This document shows, piece by piece, positions 19,001 through 40,000 of a stretch of 64,000 nucleotides of DNA (within the stretch, counting starts at the first letter, position 1; each line of letters starts with the position of its first letter). Both the position numbers and the translations under genes were made by a program. The stretch is from assembly GCA_964187785.1 (NCBI GenBank), contig OZ076409.1:43340001-43404000 (forward strand), in the 5' to 3' direction. The stretch comes from Amphiscolops sp. MND2022. Taxonomy: Eukaryota. The notes under the pieces are model-generated. The model searched no databases. It was not told the origin of the DNA and worked only from the letters and a program-made list of their open reading frames with translations.

Positions 19001-22000
19001 ATGTTTGTTTGAATTTAGTTTCAGTTCCGGGTTGCAGCGTTCACTTGGCTAATCTGATTGCTAAAGGGGTTACTATCCGAAGCTTTTCGATGAGGACGGG
19101 CAAATTAAGGTCTTCGAAATCCAGAAGTCAGAGTTGTTATACTCCAGTTCAAATCCTGCCGTGCTCAAAGCGCTGAATGAAGCTAATCAATCTGAGCTGG
19201 ACAAAATAAAACAGGACTGGGATCGTGCAAATGAAGGTGTTGAGTGATTATCCTCATATCAAAGTACTATTCGAGACAGCGCATTTGATTTCCCCGCACA
19301 ATATGAATGTGGAGTCTGGTTTCTCAACAATGAAATTCGCTGAGTCATCTTACAGGACAAATTTGGGATGTGAAACATACGACGCACTGAGGCTATGCAA
19401 ATCCTTTTTCAGAAGAGAAGATTTCGAGAACTTCAATATCCCCTCAGAATTGCTGCAACTTGTTAAGAACGCATCGTCTAAGTACAAAGAAGAATGCGAA
19501 GTTCTGAAAGCAAGAAATCAACGTGTGGAGTCTCAAGCTACAGTTTTTCGTGACGAATTCGATATATACAAACGGCGCACACCATGTGAACTAAAAAGAG
19601 AATTAAAATCTGTCGATTCTGAAATTGAAAGAACACAAGCTTTGTTAGAGGAGCTGCATTCGAAGAAGAGCCGATTATCCTCGGAGACAGCATCTGCCAA
19701 CTTTCTTGCGGATTCACAGTCGAGTGACGTGATCGCTAAAATGTTCAAAAACTGAAAAAGGGATGAATTTTATATGCTTCATAAGTTATTTGAATAACTT
19801 AATGTTATGCTTTTATAAGATATCATTCCTCTAACCTGTTGTTTTCAAGTACTTTCAACATGCCACGGCATAATGATATTTATTAACCATGATTTCCGTT
19901 AATTTTGTAACATTTCAGATAGATTTGCATCTGCCCCCAAATTTGAAATTTTGAAGTGGCCACCCTGCAACACACTAACGATCTCCCCTAAGCCTCCTCC
20001 CCCCCCCACTTTTTTTCGGCACTATGCGACTTTTTTGAAACTTTTTGGATTCCACCGAAGGGTCCCCCCTTTATTTGTTTCGATATTTTAAAACACAATG
20101 GATGTCAGAAAATTCCAAAGGGTCCCCCCTTTTACATTTTTCGGCACTGTGACACTGTTCAAAAATCACATTTTAAAATTTTTTTGGGCAATTTTTTTCA
20201 GTCCTTAAAGGGTCCCCCCTTCAATTTTTTTCATATTTTGCAACCAGCTGGAGTTTCACAAAGCCCAAAGGGCCCCCCCTTTTACATTTTTCGACACTGT
20301 GACACTTTTCAATTAATTTTTTTTTCATATTTTGCCACCAGCTGGAGTTTCACAAAACCCAAAGAGTCCCCCCTTTTACAATTTTGAGCCTTAGATATAG
20401 CGCCGACTTTGGCCGTTCTCGGCTTGTTTGAATTTTCGTGAGCCAGATTTGATCTCGAAATCTGGAGATGAGTTTTGCTTGTTGACCTTTCTGTGTTTAG
20501 GAATTGTGGTGATTGTGAATGCTGCCACAGTGTTGATTGGCACAATGAGAGCCTCATCCACCCTACACAAAGACATGTTGTGGGGTGTTTTACGGAGTCC
20601 CCTCTCCTTCTTTGAGACCACTCCTCTCGGAAGAATCACAAACAGGTTTGCTCTCCACTTTTGTATCGTAATTCATCCACTCATCAAATTTTAGAGCTGA
20701 AATGTTTGCCATTCAAAGTTCCTAATAAACATTAAGTAACTTGGTAAGTTTCTTGGTTTTTCAAGATGAATTCGAAAACCTTTTTCAAATACGTATGTTA
20801 GCAACTGAGCCCATATTCTGACTAAATCATAGCAACCACTTGAACCGTCTCATTTTGTTGTATCAGTAGATAACCAGCCGGGACCGGCCCAAGTCGGCGC
20901 CATATCAAAGACTCAAAAATAGCAAAAGGGCTTCAAGGTGTCAAGGTTTGGTGAATTGGGGACCCTTTGATGAAATTTTTTTTGAATAGTCCCACAATGC
21001 CGAGTAAAACTCAATGGTGGAACCCTATAGTCTCGCCCGGTATTGTATGTTACGCGGAAAAAAGGAAAAACCTTTTTGGTTCAGTTCCCTGGGCCAACAA
21101 GTACATTTTGGTGACACCTTAAAATTTTGTAGAACTATTTTGGTCACTTCAGGTGTATCGAAAAAACACTGACGAAAAGCCATGACTATAGTCGACTCTT
21201 TTCTTAAGAAAAGCGCCGACTAAAAATGAACAGTGAGTGAATCCCGAATAATTCAATATGGCTCAGTTTGATGGACTTGATAGAGCGGCCCGGTTGCTAA
21301 TCTTTTCATCAGGTATTGGATTATTTGATAAACATATAACTCGGTATTTTCCAAGGAGTCCGCGCAAATTTTGACACCGGTAATAAGCAAACCAGCGACC
21401 TCGCAATTTTTTTCAGCGATTCAAGTTAGTGGCAATTAATAACCTGTTTAAATTCAACATTTCTTCGGAGTATACACGGAAGTAGTTTGATATTATATAT
21501 GATGGCCGAATTCAGGGGGGGTTTGGTTTACAAAAATTTTGCCAAGTCCCGGTTTCGAACCGGGGACCTCAAGGATGAAAATCAAAGACTCTAACCACTA
21601 TGCCACGAGACCTTCTCAACTGCTACAAACAGGTTCTTTATATAACGATCGTTCATTCTTTCCGTAAAAGTTATCTGAGACGGTTGACCCTATAGTAATA
21701 ACATGAGCGGGACTCAATTGATTTGGGTAGTACTTTTGACCTTCACGTTTATTGTTGCAATTCTTACAACTCCAATATTATTAATTACTAATTCTGAAAA
21801 CGAAACGACCAATAACAGTGGGAACAATACAAACTCTTGTCCAGAAGAATTTACAGGTTATTGCATGAATGGTGGTTACTGCTATTACCTAGAAGAGCAA
21901 CAAACAGTCGCGTGTGAATGTCCGGAACTTTACGGTGGAAAAAGGTGTGAAAAATTTCTATGGTATACCTGAAAATGCACGTGGAAAATGTTTACATCAA

Positions 22001-37000: not shown

Positions 37001-40000
37001 AAATCAATTTAGTTTTCGCAATGCTTTATCAAAAGCTCTAACGGTAGATAAAGTATTATCAGAACCAGTTACCAAGCATCCAGAGATTCCAGCTATTTCT
37101 AAAATCTTCTTCGCTAGCGGAGATCCGGAAACAGATTCTGATTGCGCTGGTGTGAGGGTTAGCGATACATTTTGACAATTTGCATTGACTTCGCTTTTTA
37201 CATACTTCCCAACGTAACGGACGTTTCTCGATGCTTCTTCTTTGGCTTTGGATTCTGCCAGAACTCTAGAATTCGCAATTTTTCCCCGATTCCAATTGAT
37301 CCATGTCCATCTCCGACGGCAACACATGCCAAGTATCTAAATCTCTGCTGCACTTTACCGTTTTTATCTTTCAGGTTTTCCAGCGGGATGCATTTCAGTA
37401 ACTCCGTTTTCATATCGGGCTTCGATGAATCTAGTCGAATAATTTTGCTCGGGGTAAGGTCATCATGTTTTTTTCTTCTTCCGAAAGGTCCCATATCCAT
37501 TTCGTGATATATCTATACTCGGCGCATTTAATCTTTGAAGTCATCTTGCGATTTCGCTGAAATTGTTTTATTTGAATGATAGACGCTCTTTTTCATAAAA
37601 GTGTTGAAACACGATGGTTTCGTGCTGGGGAGTGGGTTTGCTTGTTTTTGAACCTCCGCTTCATTTTGTTTTTGCTTTAGTGAAACACCATATAGTTCGG
37701 ATATATTGCGAAAATTCCGATAACATTAAATTATTAACAGTCAGAAACATTGATTTTGTTGCCCGAAATTAATAGACCCTAATTCCAAGTAGTCAAGTGA
37801 CAGTCATTTGGGGGTGGTTGGGGGCGTTATGAGGAATAAAGGACCGAAAAAAACACTGCAGGGTAAAACAAACTAACCTTGTTGTAGACTACAGTTGGAA
37901 AAGTTGAGGTTCTTCACAAAGCAGTGACGACAAATGAAATGAGACGAAATAACACCTGAGAAAACTAATGTGTTTGCTTTTCAAACGCTCCAAATCGAAA
38001 GTTGAGTCAAACGAACAATTCCACTTGAAAGATCACTTGCAAAATGCGGGCTTCAATTTCGTTGAAACTGGTTTTGCAAGATTAATCATGCTGTTTTCAC
38101 CTGAATGATCTTTCTACAACTTCACATATTTCAAGTTCGAGGAAGTTCAGTGGCGGGTACCAATGCATATTGTTTGATTTCCGATATCTACTCACACTTT
38201 GATTAAGTTTCACACCCGTATTTTCAAAAATTTGAAACGCAATAGCCCTGCATCATCTTTGAAAAGCATATGAAAATGACCATCCTATAAAGTATTTGAC
38301 AAGCAATCACAAAAGATTTAGATTTCCGGAAACAATAATTTTGGGAAGATACTGTCTTCAAAACAAGGCAAAAAAGCAGGATGTCGTGGCAGGATATTTT
38401 TTGAAATTGATGATTTTAGTGGAGAGAATGCAAATTCCTTCTATACAACTTCACTTCTGTAAAAACGGTTTGTCTTTCACTTATTGTTACTTTTGAAAAG
38501 TCACAGTTCTAGGCACGAAGCAAGCAAAAGCTGCAAAATTTTGCAAAGGTAAATAATCTTCATTGTAGTTGAAGAGGTTGCTGGTGTAGTTTTGGCGATA
38601 AATATGGAATCCAGACAAATAGAACGCTATCAACAGTTGTTTTGATTTCCCCCTTCAATTTAATTCGAGTGCCGTCAGCTCAATGTAAAGTTAAAGTGTA
38701 TTGTTATGAAAACAAATTCATCTCACCGAAGCTTCTTTCTTTGTTGTGCCAGGGATGGTGATTTGTTTGAGGTTACCACTCACAAAAGAATAGATTGAAT
38801 CCAGGCGCTCAGAAGTTGGAGAATTCCAGCTAGCGCTCCAAAAGCTCTGAGATGAAGTAATTTTGCCCGTTTTTTTGCGAAAATTAGATCACTTTGTAAT
38901 CATATTAGGCTTAAGATTGGAACGGTTTCCAATGAAAATTACCACAGTCACCAGAATGAGATATGCTATTATGCTAATGATTTGATATTATTATATATTA
39001 ACGCCGCATTTAGCCAAAATCGTAATATATTGGGAATAAAATAAGTGATTTCAACTCCTCTTGGTGCAGTGGTTAGTTCTCTTGTTGGGAATCATTCCAC
39101 AGTCATAGGTCCCCTGTTCGAATCCGGGACTTGGCAATGTTTTTGTAAACTAAACCCCCCCCCCTAAATTCGGCCATCATATATAATATCAAACTACTCA
39201 CGAATTTTCAAAACGAATTTCGGAAAATTCCAACACATCCGTGTAAAACCCACACAGTATGTCTTTTTTCTTATAAAATCTGAATTAAGTTAATTTCAAA
39301 ACACATGAAATAAGTTCGAAGTTTCAGCGAAAAATATGTGAAAACTCTGCCGCGCCATATCAGTTTTGAATGGGTTCTACGGTATTAGACGTTGCTGTTC
39401 GTTGCTCTTATCTTTGATTTCATTGAGAAGTTGCGTCTTGTTTACAGGTTCAGCAAAGATATCGACGTCATCGACAACTCTCTGGCCAATGTGATGAAGT
39501 CGTTCATCCAGTGCCTGCTGATTGTGGTCACAGTTATGATAGCCATATGCAAGTCATTGCCCTACTTCTTTGGGGTGGTCCTTCCCCTGGCTGTTATTTA
39601 CTACCTCATTCTAGTATGTAATACTTTTCTTGAACACCCGCTCGTAGGATTAAATAGTTGGTGTAGATATGTAATACTTTTCTTGAACACCCACTCGTAG
39701 GATTAAATAGTTGGTGTAGATATGACTTCGGCTAATGTTGAGAAAAACTATTGAAGATTGCAAAGAATTTAGAATTCAAAAAAAAAATCTCAATTTTTTG
39801 GACTTCTGAAAAGTTTTCAAGTTTTGAAGAACTAATCGAATTTCTTGATTTTTTACGGTTCAAATAATTTTTCTTGCTCATAAAATTCTGCCGCATTGGA
39901 TGCGGCGCGAATGGGGCACCCTTCATTGCACGAAAATCGCCCATGCCAAGTAACTTCTGGTTCGTTTCAGGTGCTAGTTTTTTTAGCCATTAGTAACCCA

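Follow-up and report, generated by a model that had tools for sequence, protein, structure and literature searches.

Polintons or Mavericks (Polintoviricetes), described among others as adintoviruses (PMC8502044) and from vertebrates (PMC8097293), are recognised by AGTAGT ends, terminal inverted repeats (TIRs), a 6-bp target-site duplication (TSD) and a gene set of protein-primed DNA polymerase B (pPolB), integrase, ATPase, protease and capsid proteins, with accessory regions at the flanks. In the current analysis we have studied a stretch of 64,000 nucleotides of the genome of Amphiscolops sp. MND2022 (assembly GCA_964187785.1, contig OZ076409.1, positions 43,340,001 to 43,404,000), hereafter the window, which contains an element of this organisation. 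Its length is 17.7 kb against a mean of 16.9 kb in vertebrate Mavericks (PMC8097293), and, unlike the described elements, it has every core gene on a single strand. It represents a provirus-like copy, now decayed, of a Polinton family that is large and recombines; this family keeps two captured host genes, coding for an EGF-like ligand and for a uS5/RPS2-like ribosomal protein, as working genes in fixed slots. Ribosomal, EGF and growth-factor genes go unmentioned in the main text and one supplement each of PMC8502044 and PMC8097293.

Host-derived cargo of low conservation near the TIR has been described for nematode Mavericks (WASP proteases as well as KRMA kinases; bioRxiv 2022.07.12.499685), as have recombination and module exchange, including swapping of pPolB (PMC10748475); the window element is similar in these respects, and its pPolB has an HNH-like insert as in pPolB2, the likeness being that of the insert only. 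Unlike the nematode cargo, that of the present family is intronless, lies at both ends and includes one slot occupied by a single protein family in 12 deep classes. The string 'ribosom' has no occurrence in the portions of these two papers that were searched. Full-text literature searches, with RepBase and Dfam consensuses outside their scope, revealed no Polinton with a ribosomal protein, an EGF ligand or an RNA polymerase III (Pol III) unit. Mosaicism and host cargo are already known for Polintons; the EGF and uS5 cargo and the allelic series appear to be new.

Homologues of ribosomal proteins in virus-type genomes include eL40 of FloV-SA2, the S30 antisense of FBR-MuSV and bS21 of phages. 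According to a report of 2024, the first ribosomal protein of a eukaryotic virus was the eL40 of giant viruses (PMC11499249). A review of 2026 states that changes of ribosome composition by DNA viruses are not widely reported, and names several ribosomal protein homologues in amoebal giant viruses, uS5 not being among them (PMC13712778). The term 'uS5' is absent from the searched portions of both papers, the terms 'virus' and 'viral' are absent from those of PMC9911081, and a term search of part of bioRxiv 2026.06.19.733378 was without matches. The present case is unlike these viral ribosomal proteins in that uS5 is a universal small-subunit protein situated at the mRNA entry path, it is carried by an integrating element of 18 kb in an animal, and the copies are highly diverged and multi-allelic. 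Further viral ribosomal proteins may, reportedly, be listed by Irwin et al. in 2022.

A Polinton family with two host-derived genes

That the window element is a Polinton is practically certain. It spans positions 21481-39198, begins with AGTAGT and finishes with ACTACT, so that its TIRs have the (AGT)2-type termini of Polintons; the repeats, about 90 bp in total, comprise two inverted arms, one of 41 nt (98%) and one of 55 nt (91%). A sequence-only reading of the window had described a complete Polinton in an intron of an ABCC gene. Termini, TIRs, intron and gene content bear this out, but the copy is complete in gene content only and has decayed, the genes for the ATPase, major capsid protein, pPolB and uS5-like protein being frame-broken. 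The 6-bp TSD named in the same reading is present, with a match at only five of six positions; among 20 other fetched elements it is exact in 10, namely all those for which both true ends were available. The element takes up most of the intron, which has GT..AG borders and splits an Arg codon, and the exons on either side correspond to successive portions of Pfam ABC_membrane. No empty insertion site was found among the fetched loci.

The ribosomal protein gene has been identified on several grounds. Pfam assigns both S5 domains to it, in agreement with the sequence-only reading, although in the window it lies in three pieces; in other copies the open reading frame (ORF) is uninterrupted and codes for 181-196 residues. 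A sequence search of PDB ranks the 40S protein RPS2 at the top (2e-12), and the AlphaFold2 (AF2) model (pLDDT 79) matches ribosomal uS5 with an E-value of 8e-12; BFVD holds no structure match to this model at E<=0.001. The N- and C-terminal S5 domains are both present in all seven classes of the protein that were scanned.

The two genes recur together across the genome. A search with Pfam S5_C gives 318 candidates, the best 150 of which all exceed the cut-off, two of them being host RPS2. The EGF gene, of which there are at least 150 copies, has 709 candidates in the genome of 1.07 Gb; the 150 best scored are 89-100% identical and 146 of these are free of stops. At least 70 of these 150 EGF loci have a convergent S5 match 5-35 kb downstream (median 15.4 kb), as against none of 150 on the outer side. 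Ten S5 matches without a listed EGF partner were fetched, and each belongs to a Polinton of a distant family (capsid 66-70% identical) in which the slot of the uS5-like gene is identical, after pPolB and a tandem array. The gene thus occupies one slot in 20/20 elements read, distant families included, these elements having been chosen by that gene. The EGF gene is present in all ten close elements and is the first gene in nine of ten distant ones, at 31-64% identity.

Both genes bear the mark of purifying selection in the ratio of nonsynonymous to synonymous substitutions (dN/dS), given here as Nei-Gojobori estimates that are partly near saturation. For the uS5-like gene it is 0.10-0.20 in 13 of 15 class A pairs, the other two being saturated, 0.16 in class D and 0.10-0.11 in the two measurable pairs of class E. 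Among 18 further pairs, 13 have values of 0.10-0.49, four are saturated and one pair with four differences gives 1.04. For the EGF gene 22 close alleles give a ratio of nonsynonymous to synonymous differences (pN/pS) of 0.32, and one unsaturated distant pair (L092/L086) has a dN/dS of 0.22. The sequence-only reading had made its case depend on the cargo being shared and under purifying selection: both genes are found in many copies and in distant families, usually uninterrupted, with dN/dS well below 1. We therefore hold with high confidence that the cargo is family-wide and under selection.

The EGF-like ligand

The EGF-like ligand recognised in the sequence-only reading is confirmed as an intact gene. 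The N-terminus of its product is hydrophobic (KD19 2.55), a stalk with three N-glycosylation sequons and one C-terminal EGF domain being the other parts, and by its sequence the product belongs to the class of ErbB ligands. The spacing of these ligands, CX7CX4-5CX10-13CXCX8C with GxRC (CX5GXRC end), is found in 25 of 30 distinct alleles. The 25 best sequence matches in PDB are all EGFs of the ErbB-ligand type (EGF, TGF-alpha, betacellulin, amphiregulin, epiregulin, neuregulin, epigen, Spitz, HB-EGF and one EGF-like venom peptide), other EGF modules appearing from E 0.01. The ESM Atlas provided leads only, epigen/EGF at 0.86 and S5 at 0.89. The layout differs from that of the type I precursors of ErbB ligands, since the hydrophobic segment is N-terminal only, and no second membrane segment or anchor follows the EGF domain in the 89-residue ORF.

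Poxvirus growth factors have a single ErbB-type EGF domain, a terminal position in the genome and a probable mitogenic role. The ligand of the element resembles them in the single domain, in its terminal position and in its probable mitogenic role; it is unlike them in that its hydrophobic segment is N-terminal and the EGF domain ends the protein, with no C-terminal anchor. In the host genome there are two exons for receptor L-domains which, judged by eye, resemble those of EGFR. The ligand probably acts as an agonist of EGFR: membrane-anchored or secreted, it would stimulate the host EGF receptor and drive division of nearby cells, a mitogenic push that may be likened to that of the poxvirus proteins.

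Classes of the uS5-like protein and exchange of right arms

A set of 48 uS5-like ORFs, picked for diversity after exclusion of four loci with split or tandem frames, separates into 31 clusters when cut at 90% identity and into 12 when cut at 45%. Ten of the 12 classes are found downstream of EGF genes of the close family (paired by distance for L122-L153). The left 8 kb of ten close copies is 90-99% identical to the window, whereas the arm beyond the uS5-like gene is without blastn match to the window in nine of them. Between these regions pPolB is a mosaic (window 30969-35202 compared with L102-L121) of blocks at 72-99% identity, as against 94-99% in the capsid region. Classes D and F, an 84-bp array and one type of TIR unit are common to close and distant families, and arms therefore move between families. 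The uS5 classes were not seen to pair with particular array types or TIR units; class B, for instance, occurs with both 83-bp and 84-bp arrays.

A eukaryote-type source of the gene is supported by three classes (L127, L140, L148) whose N-terminal helices are still of the RPS2 type and, like those of the host gene, include a KEPEI-like motif. Host RPS2 has an intron and the uS5-like genes of the elements are intronless. In the first of two quick trees, both without known archaeal rows, all element rows fall on the eukaryote side (SH-aLRT 89); in the second, 28 of 30 element rows group together (95) without being nested in RPS2, and a single origin is not rejected (p-AU 0.76). A bacterial origin is disfavoured by the PDB ranking, the tree and the N-terminal helices, though the trees cannot name the donor. 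Homologues outside this genome are found in ENA/Logan records, and since one of them (P0015) does not exceed 45% identity to any sequence in the genome, more classes exist elsewhere.

Some loci related to this gene have an unusual organisation. Six tandem copies of the class D gene alternate with long 84-bp arrays at G000:C7:42171800-42195700 (L170-L172), where the 30 kb read contain no Polinton core gene, a satellite-like amplification of the right arm. At G000:C12:37267200-37274200 (L154, L174) a 748-bp unit with the C-terminal half of a class E gene is repeated 9.3 times, with no core genes in the 20 kb examined. At L173:2-7823 (G000:C7:36322001-36330000) two Polintons from different families are arranged head to tail, with about 1.5 kb between the uS5-like gene and the next EGF gene. 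The host carries two near-identical RPS2 genes (L068, L070) and an intron-containing paralogue at G000:C1:84636500-84646000 (L161, L176), which is 48-72% identical to host RPS2 by exon and has two exons duplicated.

Possible role of the uS5-like protein

Ribosomal uS5 contacts 18S rRNA through both its domains and lines the mRNA path, its N-terminal domain resembles a double-stranded RNA-binding domain (dsRBD), and its FxxxFG motif is predicted to bind the chaperone PDCD2 (PMC10216425). The uS5-like proteins keep both folded domains and basic residues of the hairpin and have lost the chaperone-binding and C-terminal tails. The conserved positions are mainly structural glycines, alanines and prolines together with K83, R96, R98 and T154 in host numbering; among 30 representatives K83 is kept in 28, R96 in 19, R98 in 26, T154 in 24, P172 in 27 and G193 in all. 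Host uS8 was located as one exon only.

On these features it is about an even chance that the protein acts by mimicry at the place of uS5 in the 40S or pre-40S particle, competing with the host protein. Such a mimic would bias or damp translation and not serve as a faithful spare part, and the cargo may in this way modulate translation, as the sequence-only reading had proposed. A ribosome-type target is favoured over plain RNA binding because both domains are kept in every class, and the extreme divergence together with the lost chaperone motif argues against a faithful spare part. A number of observations weigh against the mimic. None of the 30 representatives has the FxxxFG motif; with it the RG-rich tail is lost, the GYWG loop (GYWGNKIG) is lost or altered and the C-terminal tail is gone, while the tip of the hairpin is variable in both its length and its sequence. 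The element proteins are 23-41% identical to host RPS2, against 58-87% for most eukaryotic RPS2 rows, which makes a fit into 40S doubtful. They are without the FxxxFG tail, GYWG loop, C-terminal tail and high conservation of a proper eukaryotic RPS2, and are far too divergent for simple spare ribosomal proteins. Purifying selection within classes signifies function, but not which one, and the comparison between classes is saturated. The match lists of EGF and S5 contain the best-scoring 150 only, which favours intact copies, and the loci read were picked to span diversity.

The dozen very different, interchangeable versions point to a conflict over the protein-making machinery of the host. Conflict with the host or with rival elements would keep a dozen old versions alive, and recombination swaps them as a cassette of the right arm. 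The fuller proposal, in which uS5 has become an effector with many swappable alleles that, in an arms race, either enters 40S at the mRNA entry path or blocks it there, accompanied by an EGFR agonist and by Pol III units at both ends, is put forward tentatively and with less than even confidence.

Other explanations draw on part of the same evidence. The protein may bind RNA off the ribosome, for example shielding transcripts or Pol III RNAs of the element from small-RNA silencing or double-stranded RNA sensing; this is rather unlikely, although the N-terminal domain is dsRBD-like (PMC10216425), the cores are still basic (16-25 K+R in full-length rows), the chaperone motif and tails are gone and very high divergence is tolerated. 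Two domains in every class scanned are beyond the needs of a free double-stranded RNA binder, and the absence of pairing between uS5 class and array type or TIR unit does not agree with it. The star-like deep classes with class-specific conserved N-termini, and the sharing of arms across families whose capsids are 66-70% identical, could also indicate specificity alleles between elements, of an exclusion or toxin-antidote-like kind, and in nematodes a Maverick cargo protease has given rise to a toxin (bioRxiv 2022.07.12.499685); a related thought is that the classes are decoys for partners of host uS5 (PDCD2, PRMT3, ZNF277, ubiquitin ligases). We consider this pair of explanations unlikely: the right arm has no conserved partner ORF, the known PDCD2 motif is absent, and host PDCD2 was unmatched in a genome search whose control was likewise blank.

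The protein might also be a true replacement subunit and build ribosomes tuned to the virus, as has been suggested for bS21 of phages and eL40 of giant viruses. Replacement is the prevailing hypothesis on viral ribosomal proteins (PMC11499249, PMC13712778) and would agree with the whole two-domain fold that appears retained in the model and with the RPS2-type helices of three classes; it is nevertheless improbable here, for twelve classes less than 45% identical would need to fit one invariant site, with tails and loop lost. It is hardly credible that the cargo should consist of neutral passengers or processed pseudogenes. The broken uS5 gene of the window and the decayed or satellite-amplified state of some copies agree with such a reading, but open frames, dN/dS of 0.1-0.2 at near-saturated synonymous distance and a fixed slot across families do not; for the whole family it is refuted by dN/dS, and it is true of single decayed copies only.

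Terminal Pol III-type units and the tandem array

Each TIR of the window element has one outward Pol III-type unit. The sequence-only reading had taken these for tRNA-like cassettes; the A-box, B-box and T-run units are there, but ARAGORN and Rfam find no tRNA in the window, and true tRNAs in its TIRs are ruled out by the lack of a cloverleaf. An A box, a B box 30-50 nt later and a T-run occur in 57 of 75 candidate ends, many of them close kin, against 1 in flanks and 0.05 per shuffled set. The 18 ends without the unit comprise five false internal matches, four ends of one distant family (L094, L095, L067, L069) and nine right ends in the close family. Between the boxes the sequence exists in many unrelated versions. 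Among 23 other loci ARAGORN calls a tRNA in one, a tRNA-Glu(TTC) situated in a right TIR. As boxes and spacing are constant while the middle varies, and as only one locus is called, the units are taken as tRNA-derived Pol III promoters and not as tRNAs. A dispersed short interspersed element is disfavoured as the source of the right unit, with six matches only, the best being the end of a sister element.

Adenovirus VA RNAs and tDNA insulators have internal Pol III promoters of A and B boxes and a T-run terminator. The units described here share both parts and differ in being present once per TIR, outward, with a freely varying middle, one allele being still a tRNA-Glu(TTC). Their boxes would be retained for a promoter function, giving short decoy RNAs, or as boundaries of the TFIIIC type.

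The tandem array before the uS5-like gene was expected from the sequence-only reading to form hairpins. The array is real, yet its folding does not surpass that of dinucleotide shuffles (z +0.5 and -0.8), and over 12 units the mean z is -0.04 to +0.21 for RNA and DNA on both strands. Arrays are present in 20/20 elements with four unrelated unit types of 83, 84, 107 and 108 bp; as the slot holds unrelated units in every element, position and periodicity are conserved and sequence is not. A role at the DNA level, as enhancer, origin or recombination site, may be suggested. A second small array (64 bp x 2.9) lies between protease and pPolB at 30309-30494.

Core genes and surroundings of the window element

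The features of the element are collected in Table 1. The ORF of the major capsid protein is 54-55% identical to 'F54H12.2-like' proteins of the acoel Convolutriloba macropyga, its nearest named capsid relatives; we take 'F54H12.2-like' to be a Maverick capsid name. The 284-residue ORF, which has no family match, lies in the place expected of a minor capsid protein. In pPolB the polymerase motifs have been located, together with an N-terminal C2H2-like finger and an insert similar to Endonuclease VII/HNH. Gene by gene, the frame breaks of the window copy, whether mutations or assembly errors, are absent from most close copies: the ATPase is open over 148 residues against 241-242 in eight of ten close copies and the major capsid protein over 386 against 476-477 in six of ten, while pPolB, like the uS5-like gene, is in three pieces.

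Table 1. Features of the Polinton in the window (positions counted from its first nucleotide)
Feature	Position	Strand	Evidence or remark
Host ABCC intron holding the element	20646..39447	+	
Left TSD	21475..21480	.	CACGGA; right copy CACGAA
Left TIR	21481..21570	+	begins AGTAGT
Outward Pol III-type unit	21532..21610	-	A box 21595-21605, B box 21551-21561, T5 run 21532-21536
EGF-like ligand, 89 aa	21703..21972	+	intact; Pfam 4.9e-5
Conserved ORF, 142 aa	21960..22388	+	open in 10/10 close copies; no Pfam match
Four small conserved ORFs (199, 116, 88, 90 aa; last hydrophobic)	22716..24064	+	no Pfam match over cut-off
A32-like packaging ATPase	24061..24817	+	Pfam Pox_A32 1.3e-5; frame break near 24460
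Two conserved ORFs (102, 228 aa)	24705..25648	+	
Retroviral-type integrase	25575..26558	+	Pfam rve 9.9e-12
Probable minor capsid protein, 284 aa	26545..27399	+	size, position, conservation
Basic ORF, 123 aa, probable core protein	27400..27771	+	
Major capsid protein	27761..28997	+	frame break near 28780
Adenain-like protease	29081..29509	+	Pfam Peptidase_C5 0.0066, below cut-off
pPolB	30800..35202	+	Pfam DNA_pol_B_2 1e-5; three pieces
Tandem array, 83 bp x 14.3, 81% matches	35473..36659	.	no folding beyond chance
uS5/RPS2-like gene (class A)	37004..37544	-	S5_C 7.2e-6, S5 3.4e-4; two frame breaks
Outward Pol III-type unit	39060..39144	+	A box 39062-39072, B box 39115-39125, T5 run 39140-39144
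Right TIR	39107..39198	+	finishes ACTACT
Right TSD	39199..39204	.	CACGAA

Three queries of IMG/VR returned no related free viral contig, and a metagenome scan gave two distant pPolB loci, neither with a uS5 or EGF match. A 14-kb metagenome contig (L169, ODAJ014727734.1) encodes a pPolB of 1467 residues with ATPase-like, protease-like and 631-residue capsid-like ORFs; by these labels, given by eye, it is a distant element of the virophage or polinton-like virus type.

Directly after the ABCC exons the window contains a BEL/Pao long terminal repeat retrotransposon (45753-52569; repeats of 157 nt, 99% identical). An exon of an MVB12-like host gene (Pfam DUF2464) lies at 56975-57265, and positions 60498-64000 hold a tandem duplication of about 1845 bp with a piece of a Tc1/mariner-like transposase, the family being named by eye.

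Implications

Genes for ribosomal proteins are almost unknown in viruses of eukaryotes. Here well over 100 Polinton loci in a single animal carry a uS5 derivative under purifying selection and provide a natural allelic series, with which it can be tested directly whether a virus is able to remodel or jam the ribosome with its own protein. If the effector reading is true, it would mean ribosome remodelling through protein mimicry in a virus of 18 kb. It is plausible that the family behaves as a real virus, as the sequence-only reading had supposed. Given the conserved growth-factor gene, an element that acts between cells makes the most sense, and such action bears on whether the Polintons of animals are real viruses.

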